A stretch of DNA of 64,000 nucleotides from Geosiphon pyriformis uo1 (lineage: Eukaryota > Fungi > Glomeromycota): NCBI GenBank assembly GCA_016748015.1, contig JAAOMT010000040.1, positions 124,001 through 188,000 of the forward strand. The letters run 5' to 3'. The notes under the pieces are model-generated. The model made no database searches. It had not been told where the DNA came from and saw only the letters and a program-made list of their open reading frames with translations. Positions 3,165 to 61,503 of this stretch are shown piece after piece. Made by a program: the position numbers and the translations under genes. Each line of letters starts with the position of its first letter. Position 1 is the first letter of the stretch.

Positions 3165-3166
3165 AT

Positions 3167-4646: not shown

Positions 4647-7600
4647 TTTATTAAAAAATTAATAAATATAGCTTAATTATTATCTAGTATATATAAACAA
4701 ACTAAATATTTACAATTAAATATAATTTATATATTTATTATAAATAATTAATTATTTAAATTAATTAAAATTATACTAAATACTTATATAAATATTAATT
4801 ATATTATTAAAACTAAAAAAAACAAATACTTATTACATAAATTAAAATTATTTATAAAAATTTTAGCTATATTTAGCAAATAAACTATCTTATTAAACAA
4901 ATTACTAAATAAATTATGTAAACTATAAAAAATAAACATATTATTATTAATTAAACCACATTTTTTTATTATAATTTTATATTTAAATTTATATAATTAT
5001 ATTTTTTTTTTTATAATTTACTATTAATTATTGTATAAAAAAAACCAAATATAAATAGACTAATTTAATATTTTTAAACATTAATACAATTTTAACAAAT
5101 TATATTTTACAAATAAAATTTTTACAAAAAATAATATATAAAAGTATTATTAAATATATATATATAAAATTGCAAAATTAAAGATAATAAAAACAAAATA
5201 TTAACAAATAATATTTAAAATTTATTAATAACTTTATATAAACAATAATATTTAATTTATATATAAAAATATAATTCAAAAATTTTACTTTCTTATAATA
5301 AAAACAAAATAGTTTAAAATACAGTTTGTTATACAGATGTTTTTAGATAGTAATAAATAATTATCTATAAATTAATTTTATTAAATAAGTATATAAACTA
5401 GTTATAAACTTGTTAATAAAATCAAACTATATATAAAAAAATAAAAGTTTAATCTACATTTTTATTAATTATTATATTAATATTTAGCTTAATTTTTTAT
5501 TAAATATAATTACTACTTGATATATACCATAATCAAAATAATAAATATTATTTAAGATTGTTATATTATTGGCTTAAAAATATTTTTTATAAATTAAAAC
5601 AGAAAAATATAAAGATAAATAAGTAGTTATATTAACTAAATTATTAACAATTTTATTGTAACAATATTAAAGTAATTTTAATCTTAAACCAAATAATTAA
5701 CAATCTGTTTTTTTTTTAATCTAACAATAATTATAAAATTCTAACAACTTTAAACTAAGCTTAAAAACCACTTAATTATTAAAATAAATTTTTATTATAC
5801 TAAAAAATAATTTATATTTAAAATCCAAAACAATAATTTGTAATTTAGCTAGTATTAATAAAGCTAAACTAAAAACATACTTATATTTAAGCTTTTAAAA
5901 AATGTTATAATATTACTAATTATTTTATAAAAGTTTAATTTTTTTAATAAATTATTCATAAAAACATTAATAACAAATAAATTTATTTTTATTAAACACT
6001 TTTTAATTATATAAATTATGTATATTTTGGCCATTTAAACTACAATTAAGTCATATTTTAACTTTTATTTAAAAAAAATTTAATAATAATAATTTTATAA
6101 ATAATTTTTTAGATTATTTAAATTTTTATTAAGTTTAATAATTCTTTAATTTAAAATTTTTTAAAAATTTTAAAAGTTGAGTTTTTTGTATAATAAACAG
6201 AAATTTAATATTGATAATAAGTAATAAATAATATTTAATTTTTTTAATATAGTAACTGGTTTATTCTAATATTTTTTACTTTTTTAATAAACAATTTTAA
6301 TTTTTTTGATTATATTTTATGTTTTGTCTTAGTGTTTTTTACTAAACAATTTTTGATATCATAATTTTAATATTTTTCTTTTAATTAATTAGTAAACATA
6401 AAATAATACAAAAGAGAAAATAAAATAAAAATAAAAAATTGGTATTTTATTAATAACTGTAATCAAGAATTATTGTTTTAGTATTATTAGTAATATTGTA
6501 TTAATATTATCAACATTAATAAAAAAATAATTAAAGTTTTTTTTGGATAATGTAAATTAATAAATTTATTTAGAATAATTATAAACTTTAAATATTAAAT
6601 TGTTAATTATAAAAATTACTTAATAAAATAGAAATTAAACTTGTTTTTAATTTAATTTGTCTGTTTTTTCTGTTTTTAATATTTTTGTTATATATACATA
6701 AATTTTTATAATATAAAATTTTTAAAATTTTTTTCAATTTCTTTAAATTATTATTGAAATTTTTAAAATTTTTATTAAAATTTTTAAAATTTCTAATATT
6801 ATATACTTTAATAATTTATACTATGCTATTGGTTATTTATATTATATTTTTTTTATTTTACTTTACAAGTAATAATATTGAACTATAAAACACAAAACTT
6901 TTTGAATTCAATTTTTTTTAGTAATAAAAGATTTTTTAATTAAAAATCTAACTATGCTTATTAAAAAATGCTTACTAAAAATTATACCAAATTTTTTTAA
7001 AAAATTAATCACTTTATAATACAATAATATATTTAAAATATTTAATATAAAAATGCTATTTATTAAATAAAATACTATAAGCAAAAAATTCACAAAAATA
7101 ATATTATAATTTAATAAAATTTTAATTATATAAACCAAAAATTATTAATTAAACTAATTCTTAACTTAACAAAAAATTACAATAAATTTTTAAAAGTCTA
7201 ATTTACAACTTATAAATCCAAAAACCAATTATTAAAAAGTTAATCAACAATATTAAAAACATTTATAAAACTAATAAAGATATAATCTTATTTTTAATCT
7301 AAATTTGCTTAAAAATTTTTAAATTATACAAAAAAAAATAGTACAAAGTCTTATTTAAAAAGTTTTTTAAAAAATTAATTTTAATTTTTAAGCTTTTACA
7401 AATTATTATATTTTATTTTTAATACATATTTTTAAAAATAAATTAAAATTAAAATTTGTAATTAATAATTAATTACAATATAACAACAATTAGATACAAA
7501 AATTATTTGTTTAAAATAGTTTTTTTTAAGACTATATTGGCAAAAAACTTGATATTAAAATAAGTTTTAATCAAATTAAACTTAAAAAAATTGTTTATTA

Positions 7601-8029
7601 ACAAAAAAATACTTAAATATTAATATAATTCTTTTTTTTTAATAATTATAATTGGTAATTTATTAATAGCCAAAAAAATACTAATAATCTGCCAATTAAT
7701 AAAAATAGTCAGTTTTGTTAATATTAATTAAAATATTATTGATCTTAAAAAATTCACTTATAATATTAAGAAAATATTAAGTAAAAATATGTTAATTGTT
7801 AATTTATATAGTATTATTATCAAAAATATTAGCAATTAAAAGAAATATAAAATTTATTTAACTTTTTATTTAATTTATTTTAATTATAAATTTAATATTA
7901 ATATAATATTTATAAAATTGTTTATATTTTTTAATCTTATATAATAAAAAATTATAAAAAATCTGTTATTATAAAGAAAAAATACTTTACTTTAAGTTTG
8001 TTATTATAGATATTACCAAAAAACTTAAC
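4647..8029 (-). mobile_element. LINE A (oldest relic), 3' part: poly(A), 3'UTR, ORF2 C-terminus, RNase H and distal RT
   Basis: The T-tract and 3'UTR at ~4647 align with the 3' ends of the younger LINEs. Minus-strand relics such as TYFIKLIYR*LFITI*KHLYNKLY correspond to TYFMKSLHHRLPVAVQKRLYDKRY. ICNKFVKFFGNIY reads continuously across the B insertion. Confidence 0.75.
6093..6874. mobile_element. Degraded solo LTR (family LTR-B) inside LINE A; boundaries approximate
   Basis: Shares 'ttttgtataataaacaga' and 'atcaagaattattgttttagt...tatcaacat' blocks with 13777-14729 and 43536-44450, and interrupts LINE A. Confidence 0.6.
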
Positions 8030-10130
8030 TTTTTTCTCTTTTATGTCCAAAATTTTCCAAAGAGCATTTTTTTGAAAAGGTTTTTTATTTTATTTTTTCT
8101 AGTTATATTTTTTTTAATATTTCTTAAGCTAATAATCCTTTTATAATAAACTTAAAAGCTGCTTTAAATAGCAATATGTCTAAGAAAAAGATGTTTAAAG
8201 AAGTTTTTTATGGTCTTGTTAGTGGTATTTTTTCTTAAAAAAAAAGAGTTTTAGTGAACAATATTAAACACTCTGGAGATAAAAAAAAATTTTTTTGGTT
8301 AAATTTGGTCTTAATAGTAACATGTTTTCAGATATAAATAATAAGTCTAATAACAATAAAATTAATAATATTATGTTGAAATTTGGTAGTAGTTCTTTTT
8401 TTGGCTTAGTTGTAACAACTTCCAAAGCCAAAAAGTTTAATACTAGTTTGAATAGTGGCTTTTTTATTAATATAATTGACTTTGGAATAGATTAAAATAC
8501 AGGCTCCCTCCTTTTTTTTTAATATTTCTCTTAATAAAAAATAGATTGACTTTAAAATAGCTAAGACTTGAGTTGAGATGGCAATGAAAAAATCTTTCAC
8601 ATTGAATATTAATCTTTCAGCTTTGGAAAAAAAATCAGTGATAACAAAAACTCAGTTTATTAGAAAAAATTTTTCATCAATTAATAGTTTTGAGAAGATT
8701 ACTACTTTCTTAAAATTTGAAAAAATTATCAGATTAATATTTACTTCTAAAGAAAGTATAAAAAAAATTGTGTTATTGGTTAAGAAAAAAAGGATTATAG
8801 TAAATACCAATCTTAAAAGACAAAAAATTTATTCAGATTGGACCATAGTTATTAAGAAAATTTCTATAAATACACTAAAAAAAATAATTATTACAGTTTT
8901 CTTTAAGTTTGGTTAAGTAGTATTAATCTATTTACAATTAATTAGACTATAACAAAAGACTATAATAGAATTTGTTAAATCAAATTAGACTGATCAATTG
9001 ATAGCAAAATAATAATTTTTTATTGAAAAAAATTCAATACATATAACTAAAGCTATAGGAGATTATAATACTTAGATGTTTAAAAATTAATTCAGGACTT
9101 TTTTGTTTATTTTTTTTATGAGAACAACTGTTCATGATCTTAGTGCTCTATTGAAAAAAACTGGTGAGAAAACTTGTGTCATAAATTGATTATTTAAAAC
9201 TGATAACAAAGTTTGCTATACTGTGATTGGGTTTAAATCAGATAAAAAGTTAGAATTTGCCTTTTATACAAAGCCAATATTTGGTGGTGTGAAATTTTTT
9301 TGAACTAAAATGAATTTGGCTTGATATGAAAAATGTGAACATTTTAATTATTTTGCTTTAAAGTACAGTACATCTGATTTTTCCATTTTTTTATCTTTGA
9401 TAATATTTAAAAAGTTTGTTTTAAATGAAAATTACTTTTAGTTGGCCAAGTTATATGCCAAAAAAAATATTTTTATCTTTCATCCTGCTGCTTTTAGTAG
9501 TAAATTATGAATTCAGATAAGTTTGGTGGCTTTTGTTTCTAACAAATTGTTTTCTGGTTTTGGTTTTGGTTTTTTTTCTCTTAATACTTTAAGTTTTAAT
9601 GAAAAATTTCTTTTCATTTTATTAAATAATTCTTTTTTAAATGATTATTTGGTCTTTTTGAATGTTTTTTAAAGCTCTTAACTAACTAAATATCAAGTAT
9701 TGTATATAAGCTCAGCAGTATAAATTTGGTATTTTTGATTTTATTTTTTTCTTTACAAATTTTTGTGAATTTACTGACCTCTAGTTTGAAATCAGATTTA
9801 GACATAATATTGAATAATTTGCAAACTCTACTTTTACCTTTTTTTTGGTTTTGGCTAAAACTTTAATATTGGGTTTAAGTAGTTTAAAGATCTTAATCAT
9901 TAAGATAAATAGTCTAAAATCAAAACTGGTGGCTTTTGAAATCTCTGTTGGTTCTATTTTGATAAAGTTGGATTTGTTGTATACTGGCTTAAGTTTTTCT
10001 ATGTTTATCTCATCTTAATAACTGATCTAATCTGAAAAATTGTTATATATAATATTTGTAATATTAATATATTTACTAAACAAAAAAATGTAATATATTA
10101 GTATACAAAATTAGATAACACAATTTCTAT

Positions 10131-10936
10131 TGTTAATTATAAAAATTTAGGAATTCTTAATAAAGATATAAAGTAACTGATTAGAGATAGACATAGTAAG
10201 AAAAAATTTTTAGAATTCTTGGCTAAAAGAATTAAAAAAATCCAAGAAATCTTGTATAACAGTAATTATGTATATATAGCAAGAGTATTAAAAGCAAAAA
10301 AAACAGAATCCAGTTCAGAATTAATACTTATAATTAATTAATTATCTCATATTTTTTCTTTTAAAAGTAGTTTTTTATGACTTAAAGTGAAATCAAATTA
10401 CATATCAATAAAATATTAATTATTATCTAAACTTATATTATTATTGCTTAATTAATACATCTTAAAATTACTTCTACTCTATTAATATTTTATGTTAATA
10501 GAATTTAACACTTAACTACACTAGACTAATAACTCTTAATTATGACTATTAACAGAATATTAATTTCTTATTTTTTATTATTATTTTTTTATTATTTTTT
10601 TTATTTTCATTGTTGTGTATTAACTGATTAAAAAGATTAATATGTAAAGTTATTAATATCAAGAAAAACTAATAAAAGATCCAAAAACAAAAGTATAAAC
10701 TTGGAAATTAAAGATAGCTTATAAGAAGAAACTGGCCATCAAGCTGAAAAAAAATTCATAAAATACACTTTCAGAAGAGTACTGAAACAACTATTGAATT
10801 TCTGTTCATTATATAAAAAACTTAACCAAAACTTTCAGATCATAAAAACCTTTAAATATTATTAATATAATCGACTATTAAGCACCAAGTTACAGATTTG
10901 TTATTTGTACCAATCCCTAAATAATCATCTGTAATA
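10131..10936. mobile_element. Solo LTR (LTR-B), opposite orientation to the other three, in the APE domain of LINE B
   Basis: Termini tgtta...tgtaata. Right end is the reverse complement of the 13777 start. 4-bp TSD ctat/ttat. LINE reading IS|IITETKL is restored on removal. Confidence 0.8.
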
Positions 10937-13776
10937 TTATTATAACAGAAACAAAATTAAAATCTAATATTAAATTATAGATTATAAATAAGTTTAATAA
11001 GATTTAGATTTTTACTTCTGGCTTAAATGTGGATTTTTATGGTACAAATGTGACCATAATTATAAATAGTTCTCTGGCTTAGCATATTTTTAAAATAAAT
11101 AAGATTTCTGATTGATTGATTTCAGTATATTTTTTGTTCAAAAACAAATTTTTAGTTATAATTTTAAGTTTGTATATTGGTGCTTTTTTTGAATTAAGCT
11201 TTAAAGATCAATTTTTTTATGGCCAAAGTAGTTAACTCCAGCAATTTTGTAGTTTTGAATGGGAATTTTAATAAAAATGAGTCAAAAAAAAGTATTAGTT
11301 TAAGGAAATGCTTAGATATAGATTTAGTGAATTTATTTTTTGAACATTTTTTAGTAAAAATTTCTACTTAAAGCAACTTTAAAGAAGCTAAAAAGATCAT
11401 CAATTATATTTTTATTAGTAAAAATTTATTATTGGCAATAGTATATTATGAAGTTGGCTGTATATCTGATTTTTTAATATTAATTATATGACAATTATGG
11501 TTTTAGTTAAATTAAGAAGTCTTTGGAATACTTATTTAAATAGTATTTGCAAACAAACAAATAAGAATTAATAGAAATTCAAAATTGATTGTGTTAATAG
11601 TATTAAGTGAAGCAATTTTTGTGATCTCTTTTCAATTAAGCTTTCTTTGGTAATAAATGAGTTTGGTAAAGCAAATAAAAAAAATAATCTAGATATAATA
11701 AAAAAACTTTTAAAGAATATAATGATAAGGGCAGTTGACAAAACTTTTTCTAAACATTGATACAATAAGACCAAAAATTTGTTTAACAAACAGTTATCAA
11801 AATTTTTCAAATTAGAATTGTTAGTAACAAGAATTGTGAAATCACTTAGATTTGGTAACATGTTTAAAACTGATGCTTTTCTTCATACTTAATTGGCCAT
11901 TGATAAAGATAGAGCTTCAGAAATGCAAATTATGATTCAAAATAGTACCAAATTATTAAATGTTTTCAGCTGTCTATTTAAAATCAGAAAAAATTATTAC
12001 AAATTCAAAATACATAAGTCCAAAGCTGTTAAGACAACTGTTATAAGATGTGCAATTAAGAAAAGAATAAAAAATTTTTGCTTGAATAAAAACTATATAA
12101 TTAAAAATATATTAGAAAGACTATTTTGTAAAATAATACTAAATTATTTAATAGTTAATAACAATCTGATTTTAGAACTTGATAATATTAAATCTAAAGT
12201 TAACACTATTATAAAAAATTAGACCAAGAAGTGAATAGTTTTTGATTTTTTGCTTGGAATTTGGACTAGTCAATATGCTTTTCTGTACTATATAGATAAT
12301 AATACATTTTTATATATTATAAGTGCTATTGGTTTTGAAAAATTGGTTTAAGTAGTCAAAAATTTGCCAAATAGAAAAGCTGCTGGTTTAAATAATATTT
12401 CAAATAAGTTGTAAAAACATTGAGGTAATAATATTCTTAAGTGTCTTTTGGAATTTCTGAATTCATGTTTAATTTTGGGTGCAGTTCTAACTTTATAAAA
12501 AAAGGCATGAGTTTTAATAATACTTAAACCTTATAAATAAAATGAAATTTTAATGAACATTTGACCTATTGTTTTGATTAAGACTCTTAAGAAAATTTTT
12601 TCAAAGATTCTTTTGGACCAAATTTTTTTTGCTTGTAACAAATTTGGTGTTCTTTATGAGAATAACTTTTTTGTTTTGAAAAATACTTTGATACAGTCTT
12701 CTATTTTTGCTATTGGTTTAGTAGTTGAGAATGTTTTAGAAAAGAACAGAAGAGTTTGGTTAGTTTTACAAAACATGCACAAAACATATAATTTAATTAA
12801 ATGACATTATCTAAAAGCTAGTCTGCAATATATTAAAATATGTGAAAGATTTATTAGTTTTTTTGGCAACATCTATAAAAATAAAGTAAACAAGATTATG
12901 ATAGATTTTGGCCTTACAAATAAATATTAAATACATAATTAACTTAATCAGAATGAAATGTTTTCTTTTTTTCTTTAGAGAATTTTTTTTTGTATAAAAT
13001 TAAAAGACAAAACTATCTATGTAAATACTGAATTGATACCAAATTTGTGACTAAGTCAGAAAAGATAAAAATCATAAAAAGAACAATTTTATTTTTTGCA
13101 GCTAGTGCATTTATCAATAATATTATCTGAATTGAAAATAGTCAAACTTTTACACAATATATATTTAACCTTACTAGTGAATTTTTTTTGATTAATAATA
13201 TTTCTATTAACAATAACAAGATGGTGGTTATTCTCATTAATTAGAAAATTAAAGATGCTTCTTTGAAGATTAGTGAGTTATTTATTTTAATTACCAAAAG
13301 TAGTATGCTACATAAATATTTGGGAATTTTTTTGTCTATTAATAGAATGTTTAAATCCAGTTTGGCCAAGACATAATCTGATATTAAGCTTTTTTTAAAT
13401 CTAGTTTTGAGAAAAACTATTATAAATAAGCAGTTTTCAATTTGGTTTCAGTAGTTTTGCAATCTATTATCAACTATTGTTTACAGTTCAGTTTTATTTT
13501 TTTAGACATTTGTCACTAATGAGATGTCTTAATCAGAAAAAATTTTAAGTTAAAGGCTGGTTTACTCCACAATTTTCTAAGTAAGACACTATATTATTTT
13601 TCATTGTATATTTAAAAACATTTAAAAAAATTCAAGCTAAAGGAAAGATGTCTTTAATTATTGTTTTTATAAATGCTTCTGGAATTTTTGGTCAGCTTTT
13701 TGAACACAGATTTTTAGATTTTCAGGTTTTGGGCTGGGTCTTTTTAAATTTTTTATAGTATTTGGTAAGAATATAT

Positions 13777-14729
13777 TGTTACAAGTGATTATTTGGGGTC
13801 TTAAATCAAATAACAAACCCATAACTTGGTGTTTAATAGCTAATCTTGTTGGTAATATCTGAAGGTATTGATTGTTTGAGGGTTTTGATTGGAATTTTTT
13901 GTATAATAAACAGAGATTCAAGTATAATTTTCTTTTAATAATATTTCAAGTGTTTTTTTTAGTTTAGTGTGTTTTGTTGTTTATCATTTCCTGGAATTGC
14001 AATTCTGTCAATTTTTTTCTTGGCATGGTGGCTGGCAATCTCCTAATAAGCTATCCTCAAATTTGAGTGTCTACTCTTATTTCTGGGTTTTTTATTAATG
14101 CTATATTTTGACATTAATATTTTAGCACTTAATCCTTAATCAATTAGTATACAACAATAAAAGAAAAAAAGAAAATAAAGAAATAAGCCAAGACAATGAA
14201 AAGTTAATATTCCATTAATAGTCATGATCAAGAGCTATTGTTCTAATGTGGTTAAGTATTGGCAGCTATCAACATGAAGTGTTGATAGTTAGAGTTTAAT
14301 AAATATTTCTTAATCAAATAATAACAACATGAATTAGATGTTGATAAATATTTATTGATAATTTAATAATTTTACTTTAGTAAATATGAATTATTCTTGA
14401 AGTGATTAGGGAATAGATAAAAAGAGAAGTCAAAAAAACTAAAAGATCTGTTTTTTCTGTTTCTAACACTACTGCTATATATACATATTTTTCTTTATAC
14501 AAGAAATTTTTTTTCTTTGCTAGATTTTTTGTAAAATTCTTGATTTTTTGAAACATTCAGGATTTTTTGAAAAATCCTCAACTTTTCTAAAATATCTTGA
14601 ATTTCCTAAAACATTCAGAATTTTCTGAAAAATTCTCTTTTTTTGTCTTTTATTCTAATTGGCTAATTTATAATTATGTGTTTTTCTCTTTTCTATTATG
14701 TATTATTTTTCTCTTTTTTAAGTGTAACA
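13777..14729. mobile_element. Solo LTR (LTR-B) in LINE B ORF2
   Basis: Perfect TGTTACA...TGTAACA termini and 4-bp TSD atat/acat. LINE sequence resumes after it (ISFFNNFLARVV). Contains a ~19-20-bp tandem array at ~14520-14635. Confidence 0.88.
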
Positions 14730-16533
14730 ACATATCAGTTTTTTCAACAATTTTTTGGCCAGAGTGGTAAGAATCTTTTTGAATAACAGTTTTTTATTAA
14801 AAAATAGTTTGTTTTGTGTATTTTTTAGTCTTGGCAAGTTTTTTATATTAAGTGTCTTAAGGGCTTTATTGTATTACAAAAAAGTTAATTCTTTAAAAAA
14901 GTTTAATATAGCATTTTGTAACAAACTTCTAAATAAGCAGAATGGAGTTATAGATTGAAAAACATTCTATTATTAAAAGAAACTAGAATTTTAAAGAGCC
15001 AGTACCTTTTTGGTTTGTTTTAATATCAAAATTTTTGTACAATACTAAGTTTGTACTGGCTTTTTTTAGCATAGTTTTTGAATTAAATAATAATAATATT
15101 GTGTTGTTAAATTAGTTTTCAACTTTGAAAGAATGTTTTTTCAAGATCTAATCAAATACAATTACTATGTATACAAATAGTTCATTAAAAAATCTGGGTT
15201 TTTTTACTGTAATTGGTGAAGCTGCCACATATTTTTCCAAAGTTGACTTAGAAATTGATATCAGAGTTAATAAACTACTGTTATTAACAATAGTTAAATT
15301 ACAGACTGTTGCTTTGATTTTGAAATATGTGTCTTTTTTTTATGCTGTAATTGTGTACTTAAACAGCCAGATTGTCATAGATACATATATTTTAAAATTG
15401 AAAATGTTAAGTCCTAATTTTCAAAACTGTTGTTGAATAAAAAGAAAATATATTGTGAATTTAATTGACAGCAAAAATTTTTCAGTAATTTGGTTGAAGA
15501 TTAAAGAACATTCAAACATTTTGAATAATATTTGTGCAAATGTTTTGATAAATGAGATTGTTTGTTTTTGTTTTGTAATATGTATAAACAGTTTATTAAA
15601 GCTAATAGTTTGCCAGTATTTGGTAATACTTACTAAGAAAATAGATCTGGTTTTAAAGTACTAGATGGCTTTTTGATTTGAAAATTTGATTGGATTTGAA
15701 CTATTGTAATTTGATATTTAGATTTACATATATTATTAGATTTTATGAGTAAAATTTTAGCTGGTTTATGTACATATTTTAAGAAAATAATTTATAAGAG
15801 GTTGTTAGTTGCAGTCAAAAAAAAACTTTATGACAAAAAATATCTGGGCATTTTGTGTTTACAGTATAAGAAAGTTGAGTTTTCTGATTATCTATTTATG
15901 TATTCTAAAGAGTCTGATTCTTATATAAAAATTTTGCTTGATCAAATTGTGATTTAAAAATCTCTAACAGAGTCTTGTTTTATATTTTTTTCTATGATTG
16001 TGAAATCTTTTTTCTTATATTTGTTAGATATAGATCTGTAATCACTTTTCTGCAAAAACTTTGTACTTAAAAGTTAATATAGTAAAGTCATATAGATATT
16101 TAAAAATTATAAGAAGACTGTTCAAATTCTGGTTGATTTTGTGCATAATTTGAGTAAATAGCATCATTTTAATTTGTAAGAGTTCAGATCTAAATACAAA
16201 GTGAATATAAAAAAATATAAATTAATTAGTAATTCTAGAATAATATCTAATATGTCTTGTAATTTGGTATTAAATTTGTCTAATAAAATAGTTAAGTTAA
16301 TTGGTATTGATAGGTTTTTTGTAATTAACTTTGGTTTTTACAAACTTTGCTTGTTTTTTTTTAATCTGAATAATGATATAATAGTTTATATAGAGATGTA
16401 ATATTGTCTTAATTGGTTTAAATAACTGGTTATATGTAGTAAGAGCATAAATTACATTTAGCTAAAGTTCTTAGTTTTGATTCTGTATACTAAATAGTGA
16501 TTAAACTGTATTTGTTAAACTTTAATAATAATA

Positions 16534-19086: not shown

Positions 19087-19230
19087 AATTAATACTAAAT
19101 TGGTCTTTTTTTTATCAATCCCCCAACTATGACAAGAGTGAATAATTTTTTCTTGAAGCTGTAATATTCTTTTTCTTCTTTCCCTTTGTTCTTACCAGTT
19201 ATTTCTTCAAGCATATCTGTATTTGTTGTG

Positions 19231-35948: not shown

Positions 35949-35975
35949 TTTGAATTTGTTGTTGCTGTGTTATTT

Positions 35976-35991: not shown

Positions 35992-35993
35992 AA

Positions 35994-43111: not shown

Positions 43112-43519
43112 ATATAAAGCATAATTTTATGTGTATTTTTAAAATTTTATAATAATTTGTTAATATTAGTTTTAGTTATTTAAATTGTATTTTTTTTAAT
43201 AAAAACAGATTACTTAATCTTAATTATTAAATTCTATTAATATCTTTTATTAAAGTTTTACTATTGTATTTTAATTAATTAATTATTTTATATTTAGTTA
43301 ATACAATATATACAATCTTTATTAATGTTTTTATTAAGATTTTTTTGATTATTATAGCTTAATTTATATAATTTTTTATTAGTTTTTTGAAATTAATATT
43401 TACTATTATGTTATTATTATTTATTAAGTTTGTAGTTTTTATTATTTTTAATTTAAATATAAAGATTATATATATTATTTTATTAAATTTTAAGAAAATA
43501 AACACTTTTTCTTTAATTT
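43112..43519 (-). mobile_element. LINE A ORF1 segment between D and E
   Basis: Relics IIKKILIKTL and K*SVFIKKN...MLYILPII join 26024-26315 across the TSD of D. Confidence 0.68.
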
Positions 43520-43535
43520 TTTATTATTATTATAG

Positions 43536-44450
43536 TATTACAAGTAATTATTTGGGGTCTCAAATCAAATAACAAATTCATAACTTGGTGCTCAATAGTT
43601 GATATGATTGGTATTTATCTGAAGATTTTGGTTGAGTCTTTTGTATAATAGACAGAAATTTAAGTATTGTTTTATCTATTGCTTTCCAGAATCACAATTC
43701 TATCAATTTTTTTCTCAGCATAGTAGTCAGCAATTTCCTGGTAAGCTATCCTCAAATCTGAGTGTCTACCCTTATTTTTAGATATTTTACCAGTACTATA
43801 TCTTGACATTAGTACCTCCATATATTAAATCTTTTTAATCAATTTAGTAAATACACAACAAAAAAGGAAAAAAAAAATAAATAAAAAATAAAAAAAAATA
43901 AAAAAATAAAATGAAGAAAATAAGCCAAGGCAAGAAAAGTTAATATTCTATCAATAACCATGATTAAAAGCTATTGTTTCAGTATAATTAAGTATCAAAT
44001 ACTATCAACATAAAGTGTTAATAATAGAAGAATGATTTAAATAGTAAATAATTTTTTATTGATATTGATGATTTTAATTATAATGTTGTTAAACTGGAGA
44101 ATCTTGGTATTAATTTTAGCTGGAATTTTCTCTTTTCTGCTTCTAATGCTCTTGTTATATATACATAATTTGAGTTCTATAAGATTATTCACATTTCTAA
44201 GCAATATGCTATAATTTCTCAAGTAATACTCATATTGCTGAGCAATATGTCCTAATTTTTTAATATTGCTCTATATTGCTAAGCAATATGCCATAATTTT
44301 TTGATAATGCTCTATATTGCTGAGCAATGTGCTATGATTCCTGACAATGCTTTATATTGTTGAGCAATATGTTTACATGTTAATTACTATTTTTTTATTG
44401 GTCTATCTGTTTTTTTTACTATTTTTTTGTATGTTTTTCTATAAAAAACA
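43536..44450. mobile_element. Solo LTR (LTR-B) inserted at the tail of LINE E
   Basis: Start tattacaagtaattatttggggtc is homologous to 13777. It separates the T-tract of E from its 3'UTR. Degenerate 4-bp TSD atag/atga. Confidence 0.82.
44197..44371. repeat. ~41-bp tandem repeat (4+ units) with palindromic core CATATTGCT-N-AGCAATATG
   Basis: Cores start at 44231, 44272, 44313 and 44353, with a half core at 44197. Confidence 0.88.
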
Positions 44451-50400: not shown

Positions 50401-51273
50401 TTATAAGAATTTCCTTAATAATCACAGTCTAATTCAATCTGATCTCTTGTCTTTTAAGATTACCATTTATTTTGATACTTTTATTTTTAGCCAATAATGT
50501 GGCTTTATTTATGTTTTTCTCTGAAGTAAATATTAATTGAATGATTCCTTTAAATTTTAAGAGAATAGTGGCCCTTCTCAAAACCATTGACTAATAAAAA
50601 AATTTTTCTGATAAACTGAGTCTTTATTATTGCCAATTTTTTTTCTACAGCCAAGAAATTAATGTTTAAGGCAAATAATTTTTCAACAAATACTTCTACT
50701 TAAGTTTTTATTACTTTAAAATTCATTTATTTTCTGTTTAAAAAAATATTGAGAGGAGGTAAAAGAGGCCCAATTTTCTTATTCATGTTAAAACTGAAAG
50801 AACTGAAAGGGGAACCACAATCCAAACCAGTAATCACCTTTTTTGTTTTAGAAGTAATTGCAGTCAAACCCAAAAAAAACCCATTATTAATATTAGTTAT
50901 ATTATTATTATTATCATTACTAAATATACTGTCTATATTTAAATACACACTATTGCTTAATTTAGACTTAACCAAAGATATATTTTTTTTATTACCAGAG
51001 TGTTTAATATTTTCAAGAACAACTTTTTTTTTTGAGAGAAAAAACTATTAACAGAATCATAAAAAGCACTTTTAAGTGCTTTTTTTTTAAAAATACTACT
51101 ACTTGAAGCTGCTTTCAAGTTCATGACAAAAGAGTTGTTATTTTTTTTATTAATTGCTTAACGAGTGAGGTCCAAATACTACCTAGCACTATACATCATG
51201 GAATTGATCTAAACTAGGCGTGAATTATGCACTTTCTACATGTGACCAGCCACTCGGGCCGATCAGAACAACA

Positions 51274-54200
51274 CTACGCAGCTATATGAACTGACACTAA
51301 TTCACCTATACCTGAAAAGAACAAGCAAGTCTTGCGAAAACCAAAATGAACACCTAAAGCACTAGTAATGCCAAGTAACCTAACCACCCCTGCAGAGAAC
51401 CTCAAAGCCAAACCATGAACCGAGACGACGGCTGAACCATCTAGTGGGATCAGTCCATTCTTTTCCATATACGCACAATGCTTAGCACGAATTGACTAGA
51501 CATCCTTCCTGAAAGCAAGACCAAGAGAGCGCACAAACTTGACAATCTCCAAAACAGCAATCTTGGGGTCATGAAAGATGGAAACAGCCTTGCTAAACCA
51601 TCCATTGAAAATAAAGCCCTTAAAAAGAGCCATAGACACAGAGGAATCAGAAACACTGGATGACAACAGCTGCAATATACCCGAAAAGGAGTGAAAGGAG
51701 CCAGAAAGCGCCTTCCAGGACCCTACATGAGAATTCAACAACTGGCGCCAAACAGACTCGTCAACCTTGCAAGAGAACACATGATCTGACACCTCCACCT
51801 CACCACAATACAAGCACAACACACTAGGATAACGTTTATCATAGAGGCGCTTCTGAACAGCAACCGGCAGCCGATGGTGCAAAGACTTCATAAAATAAGT
51901 ACACACACTGGATGAATATCTGCTGGTGAATCCTGCAGCCATGTGCAAATTAGGATGCCACACCAATGACAAACGGGACCAATCAACCTCAGAAGACAAG
52001 CTGCCAACCAAAACCCCAGAACCAGAACCAACCTCCCACTGCGCACGACAAATAAAATGATAAATATCACGAACAAAATGCCTTGAATTTCCAGAAACAA
52101 CATCACCATCAGCTGCCAAGAAGTGCTCACTCAAGCGAGGGGGAAGATACCAATTGGAGAGAGAAGCGGCACCAGCAATCACATCAGCACGCTCATTTCC
52201 CGAAACACCAGAATGACTTTTCACCTTGCGAAAGCTAACCCTTAACTTCTTACTGTGAATTACATTGACAATATGACGACATTCGACCCAACACTGATTA
52301 TAAAAATTGGGACACACTAGATCCAACTCCGACCTGCAAGCATCCAACGCCGATTGACTATCTGAGAACAAACAAACAGAGCTCAACGGGGGAACACACT
52401 CCAAAGCTAAAGCAACAGCCTGCAATTCTGCCAAAGTAAACGACATCAAACCCAATATCCTTACGCCCAAACCCAAACCAATGTCCTCAAAAAAAACAGC
52501 AGCACCAGCTCTACAGCCAACCGTGCCAAGACCACTAAGAGATCCATCCGTATATACTGACAGGCTGCTAGCACCGGTCACCAAGAGACGATCATGAATA
52601 GACACAAATTCACCAGACTTAAGAATGTTCGAAGGACTACCATCCCCCAAAACTAGAGACTGATCACGAGAAGATTTCACACTATTGAGAAACAAAACAG
52701 AATGCTTGAACCACTCAGGAACTGGGCCACGGGGGTCCAATTTCTTTTACCGCTTGAAAGTGTACCAATTATAGACAGCACCATGACAGTTACGAAGTTG
52801 ATTCACAAAGGCAATACCATACCGCTGAAGGAAAGGGAGAAACTTGAGAAACTTTGACTCGCCCAGAACTTCAGACATAGGCACTCCGCCATGAGACCGA
52901 AAGAAACTAATCAAAGAGCCACCCAAAGACACATTGCAATTGACAAGAACACAAACCATGCCTGCCAGAAAGTTATTAGAAGCACTGACACAAATACGAA
53001 CAGGAGAACACAATGGATAAACAGGGTGCCAACACAGAACTTGCAAGTCATGAGACCTGTGAGAAAACAAACAACTCAAGATACCACCAGAGTTTGCAAA
53101 ACTGACAAGGGAAGCGATTTTGCTTTCAGATTGAACTTGAGAAAATGACTTCAAACCATAAAACGAAGGGTGGTAAACCACATCATTGGAGAAATTGAGT
53201 GGCAAACCAGACTTGAGCTTCAAACCTTTACGAATCAGAGCATCCCACTTCCCGCACACGCCAACAAAAATAAAACTGAACTGAGTTCTATAGCTGACTA
53301 TCGGATGCAGAACTGCCAACACCAAATACAAAAACTGCTTATCTGAGACTGCCTTCCTTAACACCAGATTGGTGAAAAAACAAACGTTTGAATGCGCCTT
53401 AGCCAAGCTAGGCTTCGAAAGACTCTCAGTTGACAGAAAAATGCCCAGATATTGGTAAGATTCGCCCTTTTTGGCAATAGAAATGGGCGAACCACTGATA
53501 GAAAGGGAGAAACTGCTGACTCTGCTATTGATAGGAATGGCTACCGTTTTGTTGTTGTTAATAGAAATGTCATTGATAAAAAAAAATTCACTAGCAACAT
53601 CAAGAATATGTTGAGTAGCCGTCTGACTGCTACCAACCCAAATCGTATCATCAACAAAAGCACCAGCGGCAAAAAAAGAAGAAAACCCAGCCTGGAATTC
53701 AGAACGACCATTCTTGGAAACAAAGTGAGAGTTCAACCTATACCCACATACACTCTCCTGTCTTTTGACTTCGCACAAAAGAGGATCATAAAATATGCGC
53801 CAGAGAAGAGGAGAGAAGACCTCTCCCTGGTCCAAACCATCGTGCACACGGTAATCGCTTGTCAGTCCAAAATCAGTCATGACTCAGTTGGTATGATCTC
53901 TATGAATATCACCAAAAAACCGAATAAATTTGCTACATATCTTAATCCTGACCAAACTTTTCTTGAGATGCTCCCAGCCAACTGAGTCATACGTCTTTCG
54001 CATGTCCTGCAGAACCAGCCATAGCTCCCTGTTTTTTTCTAAAGCATCTTTGACCACCGAACCAATTGCAAAAATAGGGGACTGGGTTGTTGTACTTTTC
54101 AAAACTGAGAAATTAGCCCCTCGAAGCACGTTAAAAGTACTGCACGCCAAAGAAATCCTGTCCGAGAGTATCTTGGAAAGAACCTTGCGAGCTGTTTTGA

Positions 54201-55962
54201 TCAAGGCAATAGGACGTGTGTTCATTAAAACACCTTCCCACTCATAAGGTTTCGGAATCATCAAGACCTATGCTTCCTTCCAAGGACCGGGCACTAACTC
54301 ACTAGACAAACAAAAATTCAAGAGCACCAACAACATATCCAAAACTGACCTATTACAATGTTTCCAAAGCTCATTTGAAATACCCAACAAACCAGCCGCT
54401 TTACCCTTCGGAAGATCAGAAATCATCTCAAGGAACTCATCATACCCAATCGAACACATGACACCAGAAAAAGCTTCATCAAAAACATACTCCAGTGGCT
54501 AATATTAAAGGCGCCAATCATCCGAGACATTATCGACCACCCGACGCTTCCTAGTCCAATCTTCCATGATCGCATCTACCTTGGATTTGACCTGCTCAGA
54601 TTCCAAAATCAATTCGTCATCAACCACCAAATAATCCAGCACAATCTTACGAAACGGGCGCTCCAACACACTTCTTATTGTATGACCTTTATTTATCTCA
54701 AAGCTTTCCATCCTCTTGTTTATTGCAGATCTGATGCATGCTTCTTTAGCACTCTGAGATTCAATGAGCTTGAACTTTCGATAAGATTTCCTGACACCAA
54801 AAAGAGCAGAACAAACACGACCAGATTCCACACCAGAGTCCACCAGATCCTGAATGACCAAAGCCTTGACACTGTCCAGAGAAGCCCAACACCTCATGAG
54901 AGAAGCAAAATCCACAGCACACCTCACACAAAATGCCTTAATAATTTTTGAAACCAGAAGCTCCAACTTGTGGAACCTTGACGACTCTTTGGTAAAGACA
55001 CCATCAAATTCCTTGAACCACTTTCTCTTGAACACTTCATTAGCCGAAAGAATCATTATTCTGCGAACAACATCCCACATTGCATCCAAATCCAAAAACC
55101 TCACAGAAACAGCAAACTTATCTGAGAACATTGTTGCATTAGCCAATGTGGCACACTTAAAATCGATCCATTTACTCTCATCAGCACCCTTGAAATCAAA
55201 CTTCCATCTGTCTCTGTTTGCTTGCTTGCGAAAAGAGCTCAATTGCATATCCAGAAGCCCACCCAGACCCAAAGACACTGAGACAGCTTGATGATCCATG
55301 TCAAAGTGCTCACTGACACCCGAAACATTACGATGTACCATCGCATTGACCAGATTCGGAGAGACAAACACGTAATCAATCGTTCTTTTGACACCCCTAG
55401 AGTTCTCCCAAGTGGGCATTTTCACAGCCGGGCTCCTGACCAAAAAGTTAATCAATCCCAAATCAAGGCACTTCTTGAAACTTGCACACTTATGAGAGCC
55501 GTCTTTATTAAAATCACCACCGAGGATAACAAAGGAGGACTCGTTAACAGCCTTTGCAATGATAGAGTTGATTTCGCCTGCCTGAGAGAACTGGACCGCC
55601 GAAGAAGCACCAGCGTACAGTCCCAAAATTGACACAGAGAGCCTGTTCTTGAAAAGTAACTTGATAGACAACAACCAACCCAGGACTTCAGACACCTTGC
55701 ACACATGTCTCACCAAAGAAGAGTTCATAACCACCGCCACACCAGCACCCAGATACCCAGAATCCAAACCAGTAGTAAACACCCAAATCCCATCAAACTT
55801 GTTAATGATCCAGGACCAAATCTTACTTTTTAACTTAGTTTTAGTAAAAATTGAAATTGAATTGTTCATGTCCTTATGCCAACGAACGACATCACCCTGC
55901 TTCGCAGGGTTGTTCATTCCTCTAACATTGCATGTAGCAACTCTCCATACTAATTCACTCAT
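51274..55962 (-). pseudogene. LINE F ORF2, 1562 codons, 6 in-frame stops, no frameshift
   Basis: ATCNVRG, GGDFN, TIDY, DMDH (APE). NTRPIALI, QDMRKTYDSV, GLDQGEVFSPLLW, AFVDD, YLG (RT). YTDGS, AELQA, SDSQ, KSHSGVSGNERAD (RNase H). CLYC-x8-HVFSC. Confidence 0.95.
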
Positions 55963-55973
55963 TGAGAGGGGGA

Positions 55974-57536
55974 TTAGAAGTTCACACCACCAGCCAAAGC
56001 CAGACTATCGAAACGAGCGGACAAGATCAACACAGATTTGGAGAGGCCCTCCAACATATTTTCCAACTTGACAACATGGGAGGACGTGGATGAGTCCATA
56101 ATTGTGGCAGATTCATGGCCATCAGCCATACTCAAGTCCATATCCAATGTCACATCACTTTCCGAATTCTGTGGCGGGGTGACCACTGGCAGCCGGCATC
56201 CGTGACCAGGCTGGGGAACCACCGGCACAAGCAAATCTAACCTCTTGGCCAACCCATCAATTTGTTTTGTGAGACTGACAAGACCATTCTCGATACTGAC
56301 CAGTCTTTTTTCCAGATCTTTTGCAATAGGAGGGGTAGGTTTACCATCGACGACAGAACCAAAACTTGTCTTACCACCAGAGAGAGAGGGAGCAGAGGGA
56401 GTGCTAACCACCGATGCCCAAGTTTTACCACCAAAAGCCAAAGGACGAGAGATAGACGCAGATCTCCTTGCATAAATTTTCGCCAATCTGGATTGGTCCT
56501 GAACCGAAAGGTGAGCCTTTCTGCCTCCTGCAATCCCAGCACCTTTGACTGTTCTGCAACCAAGAGAAGTATGACCAAATTTCTTACAAACCGCACATGA
56601 AACTAAAGAAAGACGGAACCAATAGAGACCAAAGCTCTTTATAACTGGAGTCATTGTCATTGCATTAACTAATTCCACTTCCAAGCTAAAACACACAGTG
56701 GCACAGCGGGCGCGAGAATAACTGACGGGATTGCGATCGATGAAGCAGGTTTTCCCACCAATAGAACCAATAAAATTCCACAAATCATGAGCAGTGGTTC
56801 CCATGGGAAGAGTATATAGCAAAGCCCTAAAATTATCTCTGGCATCTCACGATTGTTTGTCGATATCAGCCCTGGCCACCCGAATCATGTCCTTCTCAAT
56901 GAGGATAGACCACTTAGAGGCCAGAAAATCAGCCTGGTCTTGATCTTCCAATTCGATGATTGCCTTTTGCCATAAACCCACCAGCTGCATTTTGATCGAC
57001 TTAATGATGCCAAATTCGGCTACAGCCGCACGCACAGCCTCCAAAGATGTTCTCACAGGAATTTCTTTCAGCACAATTGCCCGATTTGTACAATTGTTGA
57101 CAGGGCGCTTGAGATTGGTGTTTACCACAACACCACGGTCATTAGCCAGATTAGCTGCAGTCATCATCGCCTCTTCAGAAGTGAAAGTAGCCCGAATGAT
57201 TCCACCAAATTTTGAAGGGGTAGAGGCCCCCCCAAAACCATTTACACCTGAAAAGATTTTTCTGACAAAATTGACTTTTTCCTGAAAGGATTTACCCACC
57301 ACCGCCACCAGATCTATATCCAAAGCAAAGGACTTGCGAACAGGCACCTGAACGGACGGCTTGACTGGAAAAGGAGGCGGGAGAAGAAGAGATTCATCCA
57401 ACACATCACCATCCGCATCGACAGCATCATAATCAATCACACCCAATGGCTTCCCTAATACCTTTTTGGTCTTTACACACAAACCTCTAGGCGTTTGATC
57501 AGGATCCTCTCCCACGAAAGGACCATCATCACCATA
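55974..57536 (-). pseudogene. LINE F ORF1, C-terminal portion
   Basis: Two RRM-like segments, a CAVCKKFGHTSLGC knuckle and a heptad coiled coil. One internal stop at 56847. Confidence 0.9.
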
Positions 57537-60342
57537 AAAATAATAGACTTAATAATTTAAATATATATAATATAAAACTTATAAAACAGATTACAAATTT
57601 TAATAAATCAAAAAAAAAACAAATTTACAAATTAAAACCAATAATTTAAACTTTAATATTTTTAAAATTATTAATTTTTAAAAGTTTTTTATTAAATATA
57701 AAACTTTTTTAAAGTATTAATTTTAATTATAACTATATTAAAAGCTTTTTAAAAATTAAAAATAACAAATATATTTTAATAATAGTTAAATTTGAATTAA
57801 TTATATATTATTATTTTTAAAAATTATATAATAAGAAAAAAACCAAAATATTTTTAACTATTTTTTTTATTAAATATTATTTATTAAAATAAACTAATAA
57901 ATAAAAACAAATTTAATAAATTAAGCATATTAATACAAATTAATAGATTTTAATTTAATAGTAATAACTTTATTAAATATTTAAAAACATTTTAATATTG
58001 TTATGAATCTACTAAAAAAAATCTGATAAAATATAACAATAATAAAGAATTATAATATATTTTTAATTTTAATATAATAAAATAATTAATTTAATATTAA
58101 TAAATTATATATTAATTAAAAAACAGTTTTTATAATCTAATTTGATTTTTAAAAAATATTAAATATTAAATAAATTTTTTTATCAAAAATTTTTTAATAA
58201 TTGTTTTTTAAAATAAAATTACTAACATAAAAATATAACTTATTTTATTAAAAATGTAAAATTAAATGTAAAATTAGCTATTAATTTTAATTTATTTTAA
58301 AAATATTTTGTTTTTATTGTTGTTTAAATTAAAAAAAAAATAAAACAAAAAACATTAAATATTTATTTTTATAATTATAACCAAACCATTTTTTTGGCTC
58401 TAAATAAAAATAATTTTCTTTAAAGTCTTTTTTAAATAATTAATTATGATTAATTTTTATATAATTATTACTATTATAAAAAATTCTAAAACTTTTAACA
58501 ACAAATTAATAATAAAACTTATCTTTTTTTACTACCTTTTTTATATTTGTTTAAATAACCAAAAAAGTTAAAGATATAAAAAAACAGTTTTTTTTTAATT
58601 TAAAATAATTAATTCTTTTAAAATACCAAAAAAAAACTTGTTTTGGTATTTTTTAAAGTATTATTTTGAATTTAAAGTCTGTTTTTTTTGTAAAAAATGA
58701 AACAATAGTTTTTTTTAGTTTTTTAATGTTTATTTTAATTTTATTACAACTATATTAATTATAATATTTAATTTAAATTTAATTGTAAACAATAATTTTT
58801 TTGTTTTGAATAATAATAATAGTAATATATTTACCAAAACTAAATTTGATTATATTATATATTATATTAGTATTTGATTAATTTTTACCAATTTTATAAA
58901 CAAAACAAGTTATATTTTTCTATATGTTTTTAATTAATTAATTTATTAAATTACTTAATCTTAAAGATTAAATTAATTAAATAAAAATTAAAGCTATTTT
59001 TTGTTTTTTGGTAATATTGCTTTTAGTATTTAAAAAACTATTGTTAATTATTAAAAAATTTTTAAATAAATAGTTTTTATTTTAATATTTAATGTTTTTT
59101 TAAAATTAAATTAGTTTTTATCAAAACTGTTTTAATTTTATTAATATAAAATTAGTTTTTAAGAATAATATAAAGCTATTTTATATAAAGTTTGTCTTTT
59201 AGGTTTTTTTAAATACTAATTTTAAATTAAACTTATTGGTTTTATTTCTTTTTTTACTTTTAAAATTGCTAAATTTTTAATAATTTCTGAATTTATGTCT
59301 TTTTTTATTGTTATTATTTTATAAAATATACTTAAAAATGTTTTAATTATTAATATTAAAACAATTTTTAATGCTTTAATAAAAATTTCAAATTTAATTA
59401 AAGTTTGCTAATATTTGGCAATATATTATTATTTATTTTAAGTTTTTTAATACAGTTATAACTGTTTTTATTTGTTAATTGATTTTAATAAATAAAAATA
59501 ATATTAAAATTTTTTTTATTAATTAAAAAGAAATTATTCTTTTTTATAATATGTAAAATTAAATTGATTAATTTTTTTAATTATATTGTATTTAAAACTA
59601 ATAAATTGGTTTTTTAGATTTGTAAGTATATTGCTTTATTTTTTTTTTTATTTTACAATTATAATATGTAATTATTACTTTTGGTTTTTAAAAAACTTAG
59701 ATATTACAATTATGAAAATTAGTACTTTAAAAAAATATTATATTTAACAAAAAATTTTTGTTTATTAATATTTTTTTAGATATTAAATTTTAATTATTTG
59801 GTTTTTAATTACAAAATATTATTATTTCTTTTTTTAACTCTTTATTTAAGTTTATAATTAATTTTAATATTAAGTTTTATATTAAAACATTTATTTTATT
59901 ATTTTTTATTGTTATTATTTCTTTAATTATTTTTATTGTTATTAATATTATTAATTTTTTGGTTGATTTTTAATTGGTTTTACTAATTAAGTTTATTATA
60001 GCTTATTAATATTTTGGTTTTTTAATAATTAAGTTGATTAAAACTTTTTTTGTTTTATATATTAAATTAAAAAAAAATATGTTTTTTATACAAAATAAAA
60101 ATTTTAATTTTAGAAAAACTTTTGATAATATAAGTAAAAATATTGTTTAAACTTAAAATAAAATATAAAATCAAAAATAATAATATAAATATATTTACTT
60201 AATTTTTTTTTAATAAGTTTAATAAATATAGCCCAATTATTATCTAAAAACATATAATTATACAAGATCTTATATTAAGTATGACTTATGCTTTTTTTTA
60301 CACATGACCAGTCTTATTTAATTAATAACTTTTAAAAACATT
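57537..60342. mobile_element. Degraded repeat DNA including element X copy 2 (~58700-60342), inside the inversion
   Basis: Homology to 1-1400. The left part may be another LINE relic continuing at 61504-61880. Confidence 0.5.
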
Positions 60343-60354
60343 AAATATTTAATA

Positions 60355-61021
60355 AATTAAAAAACTTTTTTTTCTATATCTTTAATTTTTTTAAAAAGTT
60401 ATTTTTTAAAAAAAAAGTTATTTTTCTTTATTATTAAGTTTTTAATATTAAACTTAATATGAATATATTTTTTTATTTAAATTTACAACTGTTGCTAATT
60501 TAATTAATATAATAAGTCTTAATAAAAATGCCAAGAATTTGAATATTGGCTTTACTAACAAATTTTTCTTAATAAAAAAGAAAAAAAAATGTATTTTTAT
60601 TAAAAATAATAATAATAATACTAATTTTATTTCTTATATTATGATAATTTTAGTTAATAATATAAATTATATTAATATAAATAGTATTACTAAAACAAAA
60701 AATATTAATATTAATAAATATTATTTAATAAAAATATCTGTTTTTGGCTTTAATAATAATAATAATAATAATAATAAAATAAAGATATTTAATATAAATA
60801 CTATTTTAAAAACATTAAAAATTAAAACTTATATAGTAATAATAAAGTTTTTAAACAAGATTAATTTTAATAAAAACAATAATAATAATAGTGCTTTTTT
60901 TTTTGTTTTTTAAAATTATATACTTTAAATATTAATTTTTTTGCTATTAAAGTAAATTATCTTAGAAAAAGTTAAAATTAATTAGAAAATTATTTTTAAA
61001 TATAAATAAATTAGAGAAAAA
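60355..61021 (+). mobile_element. LINE A 5'UTR and ORF1 start (inverted)
   Basis: 5'UTR resembles those of B and E. It ends IRKLFLNINK, which joins 43519. Candidate 12-bp TSD aaatatttaata (60343-60354 / rc of 4635-4646). Confidence 0.65.
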
Positions 61022-61128
61022 AAAACTTTTTTTTCTCTTATATCTAAAATTTTCCAAAAAGCATTTTTTTTAAAAAAGAAGTTTTATTTTTTCTTGTTAT
61101 TTTTTTTCAATATTTCTCTAACTAACAA
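61022..61128 (+). mobile_element. LINE E 5'UTR (inverted)
   Basis: Aligns with B 8030-8132 and supplies the ~100 nt missing from E at 51140. Confidence 0.8.
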
Positions 61129-61503
61129 AAATAAATTAAAAACTTCTTTTTCTTCTTTGTTCAAAATTCCCAAAAAAGAGTTAAGAGTTTTTTTTGAAAG
61201 AAGTTTTTTACCATTCAGTATGATAAATCAAAACCGTTTTTCGATTACAAAGCCACTGTTGGCTCTGTTATCGCTGTTATGAAAAAGACTGCTAAAGTTT
61301 CTGGTTCTGAGAGTGGTTTTAAAGTGGTTGCATCAAGGAAAAAGAGGAAAAGAGGTGTGTTGGCAGAGGGTGTTGATAATGGAAGAGTTGCTGCTGAAGT
61401 TCCTGGTGTTTGTTCATGGGGTTCGGAGACTGGTAACACTACGGAATCTGAGAGTATTGACATGGAGGAAGAATGCTTGGTGGAAGAAACCAGTGTGGAT
61501 TAT
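61129..61503 (+). mobile_element. LINE F 5'UTR and ORF1 N-terminus (inverted)
   Basis: GC-richer block reading MKKTAKVSGSESGFKVV...EETSVDY, which joins in frame to (Y)GDDGPFVGEDPDQTPR at 57536 on the minus strand. Confidence 0.88.

Follow-up and report, generated by a model that had tools for sequence, protein, structure and literature searches.

Age-graded C:G to T:A decay of nested retroelement copies in a contig of Geosiphon pyriformis

The decay of transposon copies described here was found in 64,000 nucleotides of the glomeromycotan fungus Geosiphon pyriformis uo1 (contig JAAOMT010000040.1 of assembly GCA_016748015.1, positions 124,001 to 188,000), a stretch that is called the window below and to which all coordinates refer. 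Between 4647 and 61503, the window holds a nest of long interspersed nuclear element (LINE) copies, named A to F, and a Gypsy element with long terminal repeats (LTRs). It was shown that these copies are eroded by directional, transition-only changes from G:C to A:T, and that the erosion tracks the age of the copy. The end state is DNA of about 10% GC that is enriched in GpC and free of CpG. The erosion is restricted to the repeats; the neighbouring host DNA, represented by a control of about 2.4 kb near genes, lacks the signature. The feature is real and strong, and the decay reaches all cytosine contexts, graded by the 5' base. The original prediction, made from the sequence alone, had described an erosion that is repeat-restricted, progressive and mostly outside CpG, and this held (by count, and with a small host control). 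It had further proposed a system resembling repeat-induced point mutation (RIP), of which only the repeat-targeted transitions stood: CpG is the fastest context, CpA is not preferred, clustering and strand coordination were not found and near-identical LTRs persist.

Copies were mapped by tblastn, by purine/pyrimidine seeds and by transition-tolerant alignment. The GC content runs from 0.44 in F through 0.37 in C, 0.36 in D, 0.26 in E and 0.22 in B to 0.10 in A, in agreement with the nesting, as had been claimed. The observed/expected ratio (o/e) of CpG is 0.56 in F, 0.08 in C, 0.09 in D, 0.04 in E and 0 in B; it is 0 in two parts of A, and a third part has four CpG. To follow the decay outside CpG, tryptophan codons were used, since neither G of TGG can lie in a CpG. 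At codons where TGG is kept in at least two other copies, the G>A changes per G amounted to 2/40 in F, 5/46 in C, 10/52 in D, 26/54 in E, 29/54 in B and 44/52 in A, which is a loss of 5–85% that grows with age. No CGG was present at the assayed codons in any copy; eight codons of other kinds and five gapped codons were excluded. Codon positions 1 and 2 gave the direction of change, with the ancestral base taken from the agreement of younger copies. Transitions from G/C to A/T were counted at 183/745 positions in D, 221/553 in E, 245/528 in B and 390/509 in A, against 57/1256, 60/1177, 36/1124 and 32/1085, respectively, from A/T to G/C. The youngest copy, F, has seven premature stops, six in open reading frame 2 (ORF2) and one in ORF1, without any frameshift. 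The claim that all seven arose from CAA, CAG, CGA or TGG could be kept for the six that derive from Gln or Trp codons, while codon 693 (TGA) is ambiguous and may come from CGA or AGR.

The order of insertion was read from the arrangement of the copies. Copy A lies on the minus strand and was assembled from tblastn, transition-tolerant alignments and composition: a 3' part with RNase H and the 3' end (4601–6050, about 10% GC), a reverse transcriptase (RT) region (6961–8017), an endonuclease–RT part with the end of ORF1 (16546–19164), and two pieces of ORF1 (26011–26317, between C and D, and 42836–43518). The ORF2 of A is co-linear on either side of copy B (8030–16533, plus strand, 22% GC, LINE parts without CpG), which is flanked by a 12-bp target-site duplication (8018–8029 and 16534–16545). 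Its ORF1 runs on in order through 18483–19164, 26011–26317 and 42836–43518 (scores of 122–383 vs. shuffle maxima of 69–100); a further trace at 60547–61020 is weak (120 vs. 108 and 113 vs. 90, one of three queries being under its null). As both frames stay co-linear across the guests, A hosts B, C, D and E, as originally predicted. Copy C (19110–26010, plus strand, 37% GC, CpG o/e 0.08) belongs to a different subfamily, and its 5' boundary is approximate. Copy D, on the minus strand, consists of a 3' part (26321–27087, the final four bases being one copy of the Gypsy target-site duplication) and a main body (36964–42830, 36% GC, CpG o/e 0.09), has an ORF2 of the same subfamily as F and hosts the Gypsy element.

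The main body of copy E (44331–51140, 26% GC) and copy F (51141–57535, 44% GC, 169 CpG, with ORF1 and ORF2) both lie on the minus strand; the ORF2 of F (55962–51274) encodes endonuclease, RT and RNase H domains. The adjoining segment (57536–61503) contains an AT block of about 10% GC and the 5' ends of A (the weak ORF1 trace), E (61021–61130) and F (61131–61503), all on the plus strand. The first 373 bases of F and the first 110 bases of E thus sit on the opposite strand, at 61021–61503, which indicates that the segment is inverted with one break within the ORF1 of F. As predicted, E would then be the host of F, provided that this inversion is allowed for. The arrangement may also be an assembly misjoin, and F is broken inside ORF1 at a short AT-rich microhomology. 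In all six host–guest pairs, the host is more eroded than the guest. As a clock, nesting ranks the copies only in part, since it leaves B, C, D and E mutually unordered, and the copies span more than one subfamily.

Rates by context come from a hazard model that covered copies D, E, B and A. The rate depends on the base 5' of the cytosine, with relative values of 0.72 for G, 1 for A, 1.3 for C and 1.61 for T (n = 1350, p = 5e-10). Outside CpG, the 3' base has no such influence (A/C/T = 1/1.03/1.15, n = 1203, p = 0.42), so CpA is not preferred. CpG is lost fastest: 7 of the 91 CpG of F survive in D, and the hazard is 1.28 vs. 0.22–0.27 at non-CpG sites. Events outside CpG are still the majority because non-CpG sites are far more numerous, despite the about five times faster loss of CpG. 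The surviving cytosines carry the same gradient, as the o/e of a 5' G rises from 0.95 in F to 1.13 in C and D, 1.45 in B and E and 2.38 in A, and that of a 5' T falls from 1.09 to 0.99, 0.90 and 0.53. On the sense strand, the rates of C>T and G>A are equal (p = 0.35–1.0) in every copy except C. Clustering (dispersion p = 0.24–0.77) and strand coordination (strand-run p = 0.07–0.42, the lowest value being that of F) were sought in F, D and C and not detected, in tests whose power is limited by an imperfect proxy polarisation.

A second line of evidence comes from the Gypsy element, whose left LTR (27088–28055, including a gap of 167 N) and right LTR (35994–36963) are 970-bp direct repeats 8.9 kb apart. 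With the poly-A tract and the N gap set aside, about 770 columns can be compared, and 19 of them carry a substitution. Every one is a transition, six at CpG and 13 elsewhere; at 27094/27095, a single CpG was hit on each strand. The counts agree with the original prediction, but its observation that all were C/T or G/A gives no direction, since any transition reads in this way. The differences were therefore polarised with family contigs. Tests beyond the window used family proteins and the contigs of a single DNA run, X1, which is not independent and possibly represents the source sample; two other runs, X2 and X3, contributed almost nothing (5 and 0 contigs aligned). For the LTRs, 14214 X1 family contigs were aligned to the right LTR, and 40 of 68 variable places were available. 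Among these, seven of the 13 non-CpG differences are G:C to A:T by family majority and one (36655) is T to C; four others are absent from the 40 places, which is compatible with an ancestral G:C, and 36021 is ambiguous. With the latter five counted as C>T, the rates are 6/44 for CpG, 12/442 for other C and 1/1080 for A:T to G:C. The non-CpG rate is thus about 30 times higher than the reverse rate (p = 3e-6), and CpG is about five times faster per site than non-CpG (p = 0.003). Places variable in at least 8% of the family comprise 61 transitions and seven transversions. The LTR pair by itself is suggestive rather than decisive, because the absence of transversions among the 13 has p = 0.005 at a transition:transversion ratio of 2 and only p = 0.055 at a ratio of 4.

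The remaining X1 comparisons concern copy F, on which the contigs show 640 transitions and 133 transversions at 773 places (at least 30%, flanks included). A subset of 40 of 777 F places, those with a high family share and with most CpG excluded, gave CA 9, CC 9, CT 7 and CG 3; these figures were not used as rates. Among proteins, the endonuclease part of F is matched at 100% over 94% of the query by one entry, and the best 120 of 294 matches all belong to this LINE family, 119 of them labelled as hypothetical proteins of Geosiphon pyriformis. Changes at columns that are 70% conserved were compared between 119 LINE proteins from other contigs and 119 related integrases, mostly from other sources and some from Rhizophagus. 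In the LINE proteins, 2148 of 3858 changes are of the GC>AT-transition type (D>N 264 vs. D>E 24; P>L/S 63 vs. 0 of transversion types); in the integrases, the figure is 460 of 1868 (D>N 24 vs. D>E 28; P>L/S 68 vs. 41). The integrases are a soft control, as the element classes differ, selection for open frames affects both sets, and selection also shaped the divergence of the integrases.

We favour, with confidence that is about evenly balanced, a methylation of silenced repeats in all contexts that would be followed by slow, poorly repaired deamination. A de novo methyltransferase of the DIM-2/DNMT1 family would mark the repeats both within and outside CpG, and methylated cytosines would deaminate, hydrolytically or with the help of an enzyme, faster than they are repaired. 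T:G mismatches in repeat chromatin would be poorly repaired, and the decay would run continuously in vegetative nuclei and not as one premeiotic burst. In this way, transposon copies would lose their C:G pairs as C-to-T changes on both strands, in all contexts and in step with age. We infer methylation, enzyme and timing alike from the pattern of the changes: the fast CpG class points to 5-methylcytosine (5mC), the flat 3' context to a promiscuous de novo enzyme, and the strand symmetry, the lack of clusters and the growth with age to a continuous process in double-stranded DNA. Related fungi offer precedents. In Rhizophagus, 32.5–49.5% of cytosines were found to be methylated by LC-MS (liquid chromatography–mass spectrometry; PMC8298701), and CG sites make up 13.8% of cytosines (PMC8647823), which suggests non-CG methylation in a relative, though the two figures come from different isolates and methods. 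In Phycomyces, DIM2 is present and transposable elements (TEs) carry CHH methylation (PMC11258239; PMC13297926).

Several observations weigh against this picture. In copy C, the strands differ (109/311 vs. 128/480, p = 0.014), with a lean to C>T, and F has two tandem double changes where 0.5 are expected. In the codon-position comparison, F shows 80/647 forward changes vs. 123/1324 apparent changes from A/T to G/C, and C has many transversions; parallel decay of the proxies, or the other subfamily, would explain both. The host control is short (about 2.4 kb), adjoins two genes and is possibly constrained by selection, with repeat matching confined to the window. R. clarus, of the very high-5mC genus Rhizophagus, was scored no_rip (PMC12543289, supplement 12), and the related integrases are without a GC>AT-transition bias, which together suggest that methylation alone may not suffice. 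Geosiphon may need a further step, either an active process or a loss of repair. Finally, CG in Zymoseptoria is methylated yet unmutated, unlike in Geosiphon (PMC8016269). An active, repeat-targeted cytosine mutator outside Dikarya, with a code of its own (CpG first, then any C according to the 5' base), is a tentative idea that deserves some credit; it could have arisen independently or represent an ancient version of RIP. Were such a mutator premeiotic, its traces would be a footprint of sex in the genomes of Glomeromycotina.

True RIP is unlikely. It would be a homology-sensing mutator, dependent on RID/DIM-2 and relaxed in its context, whose many weak rounds take place during a cryptic sexual stage. 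It would account for a transition-only spectrum that reaches 10% GC and for the sharp borders of composition between repeats and host DNA at about 1860, 4020 and 62520, and many weak rounds would appear unclustered. The clade of arbuscular mycorrhizal fungi (AMF) is said to have DNMT1, DNMT2, DNMT5, DIM-2 and RID (PMC8298701), in a statement that cites a survey which, according to the same paper, lacked Glomeromycotina. The dominance of C:G to T:A transitions in the repeats and the restriction to repeated DNA agree with RIP. The fast CpG, the unpreferred CpA and the lack of clusters or strand runs in F, D and C do not. RIP should also deplete near-identical linked repeats, but the two LTRs of the Gypsy element differ at merely 19 columns, 6436 of the 14214 LTR contigs are at least 95% identical, and LTR elements account for 41.2% of the genome (PMC11952901). 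In a kingdom-wide screen, only ascomycetes carried the RIP signature, though none of the 19 text supplements of that screen lists Geosiphon (PMC12543289). As the decay in Geosiphon lacks the CpA preference, the clustering and the repeat depletion of RIP, it was not filed as RIP. Methylation-linked, continuous decay fits better than premeiotic RIP or an enzyme of the APOBEC type.

A deamination independent of methylation is a decidedly unlikely source. It would consist of unrepaired C-to-U changes in heterochromatin, or of an AID/APOBEC-type deaminase that prefers TC, in addition to ordinary CpG decay. The neutral 3' base outside CpG is consistent with it, and the gradient T>C>A>G at the 5' base resembles TC-preferring deaminases. 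However, this gradient is just 2.2-fold, ApC and GpC sites are frequent targets too (ACA 23/47 and GCA 9/35 in B and E), and the hits are unclustered. The strand symmetry further excludes the editing of cDNA during reverse transcription, and a one-time event at insertion is excluded because the decay advances with age.

An extreme bias from G:C to A:T in the whole genome, with the C of host DNA kept by selection or by biased gene conversion, is improbable. The host genes in the window served as controls that keep CpG, as the original prediction had stated. They are a gene of the Pmp3 family with two exons (2303–2614, plus strand; Pfam PF01679, E = 2e-16), whose first exon has a CpG o/e of 1.02, and a probable alpha/beta hydrolase gene with several exons and an approximate start (62544–63700, minus strand; PF20408, weak at E = 0.02), whose region has 0.90. 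Between the first gene and the repeats lies intergenic DNA without a repeat match within the window (2615–4020, CpG o/e 0.95). Its 1.4 kb have 22.7% GC vs. 10.3% in A (p = 2e-30), and 17 CpG were observed where 17.9 are expected. A bias of this kind would agree with the AT-rich state of host non-coding DNA itself (2403 bases, 25% GC), with the loss of several DNA polymerases in Glomeromycotina (bioRxiv 2025.09.02.673565) and with a control that is small and close to genes. However, the host non-coding DNA has 31 CpG to 29 GpC, a TpC o/e of 1.18 and a GpC o/e of 0.77. In A and the AT blocks (10% GC), there are 7 CpG to 74 GpC (p = 2e-8 for 31:29 vs. 7:74), and A has a TpC o/e of 0.53 and a GpC o/e of 2.38. 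The signature of the host is thus reversed and not merely weaker, which makes a genome-wide bias unlikely as the source unless selection keeps these dinucleotides. The check on single-copy DNA that accompanied the original prediction was thereby passed, on this control.

Ultraviolet (UV) photoproducts at dipyrimidines in a soil-surface fungus with a cyanobacterial partner are highly improbable: TpC and CpC are indeed the fastest non-CpG contexts, but there is no excess of tandem CC>TT in D (5 vs. 4.6 expected), E (10 vs. 9.1) or B (13 vs. 10), the non-dipyrimidine ACA and GCA are heavily hit, and the sparing of host DNA is left unexplained. Retroelement editing of the APOBEC type, with G>A on the sense strand in one event, was rejected, as five of the six copies are symmetric, C leans to C>T and the decay grows with nesting age. 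Passive decay of 5mC at CpG only was likewise rejected, because the excess persists when CpG is removed, both in the tryptophan assay and in the LTR pair; here the original prediction was borne out.

The interior of the Gypsy element (28056–35993, minus strand) encodes gag, protease, dUTPase, RT, RNase H and integrase, as read from Pfam, the translation and the list of stops. It has 19 in-frame stops, 18 of them premature and one, at 30331 (minus strand), likely native. The latter falls between RNase H and integrase, and related integrases often stand alone with about 420 aa. By a context reading of the codons, about seven CGA were lost and seven remain, 7–8 of about 185 Gln codons were lost, and 3 of 52 Trp Gs were changed; only one stop source (Gln at 29587) is confirmed by alignment, and the stop at 29251 may derive from Lys. 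Across 123 conserved columns, the integrase shows 19 differences, and 12 of these are compatible with GC>AT transitions. Decay of the interior seems greater than the LTR divergence would predict. At 36239 and 36633, both LTRs have A/T where about 80% of the family depth has G/C, and judging from these shared alleles, partial erosion of the parent copy probably preceded its transposition. The target-site duplications (27084–27087 and 36964–36967) are four bases each and read CTGA and CCAA; they may represent one CpG-centred site that decayed on a different strand in each copy. The dUTPase lies between protease and RT (31944–32798; PF00692, E = 3e-23) and is possibly of interest given the heavy cytosine deamination in the host. 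An extra open frame of 184 aa (28204–28758), past the integrase on the same strand, has no Pfam match and no stop.

Other repeats were also seen in the window. Four related, unclassified insertions of about 0.8–1.4 kb are present: one in A (6051–6960, 10% GC), two in B (about 9501–10930 and 13741–14725) and one beside E (43501–44330); the last three have 21–24% GC. Another repeat has two copies (4–1244 and 58700–59870), each of about 10% GC, that are 74–79% identical. Beyond the window, pattern searches of metagenome contigs for relatives of the LINE RT gave 194 matches, none of which was confirmed. A DNMT motif gave no viral loci and 116 metagenome loci that by appearance are bacterial, animal, plant or protist-like. 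The one odd candidate among these is a short, intron-broken piece.

Repeat erosion of RIP strength has been held to be an ascomycete trait, and a glomeromycotan case with another context code widens the range of genome defence. Ascomycetes are unique for the RIP signature in a screen of 1,239 genomes from which Geosiphon is absent (PMC12543289), and RIP was not detected in Gigaspora or Mucoromycotina (PMC8647823). The literature searched, which largely left subscription papers and the Geosiphon genome paper out of its scope, held no report of RIP-like decay in Geosiphon, and the available part of an AMF-wide TE survey that covers it does not use the word RIP (PMC11952901). RIP indices based on CpA would partly miss such decay; the substrate indices of C, D, B and E are about 0.95–1.7. 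The decay may connect mutation with the very high 5mC levels of these fungi, a connection that can be tested, and the loss of Trp codons provides a measure of age for each copy. Conversely, ages of LTR elements calculated with standard rates will be inflated. The proteins P0002–P0120 are labelled as hypothetical host proteins, yet they are fragments of LINE ORF2. This suggests that many hypothetical proteins of the Geosiphon genome are eroded LINE fragments, and the gene count of the assembly is likely inflated.

Known systems share parts of this pattern. In plant LTR elements, which have raised transition rates, methylation at CG, CHG and CHH would lead to C>T in every context, most rapidly at CpG. 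Such elements also keep accumulating transversions and indels, and their copies are not known to reach 10% GC while still co-linear. The mitotic Dim2 mutator of Zymoseptoria tritici is alike in being restricted to repeats, almost purely C>T, non-CpG and able to run without meiosis, and it inactivates TEs through nonsense and missense changes (PMC8016269). However, more than 98% of its changes are at CA and CG is spared, whereas in Geosiphon CpG is fastest, CpA, CpC and CpT are equal and the rate is governed by the 5' base. Zymoseptoria has a known enzyme (Dim2), whereas a corresponding one in Geosiphon is putative. Classical RIP in Neurospora and other Pezizomycotina likewise gives transition-only erosion of repeats, AT-rich blocks with sharp edges, and stops from Gln, Trp and Arg codons (PMC12543289, PMC4352252, PMC4943192). 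It favours CpA (CpT in some species), acts in premeiotic bursts and clears repeats of high identity, none of which is seen here. The TE hypermutation of Pucciniomycotina and Tuber (CpG/TpCpG) agrees in that CpG is fastest, a 5' T raises the rate and methylation with deamination has been proposed (PMC4352252, PMC3318451). There, the changes are confined to CpG or to CpG plus CpA, whereas the decay in Geosiphon is mostly non-CpG and proceeds to 10% GC after CpG is gone.

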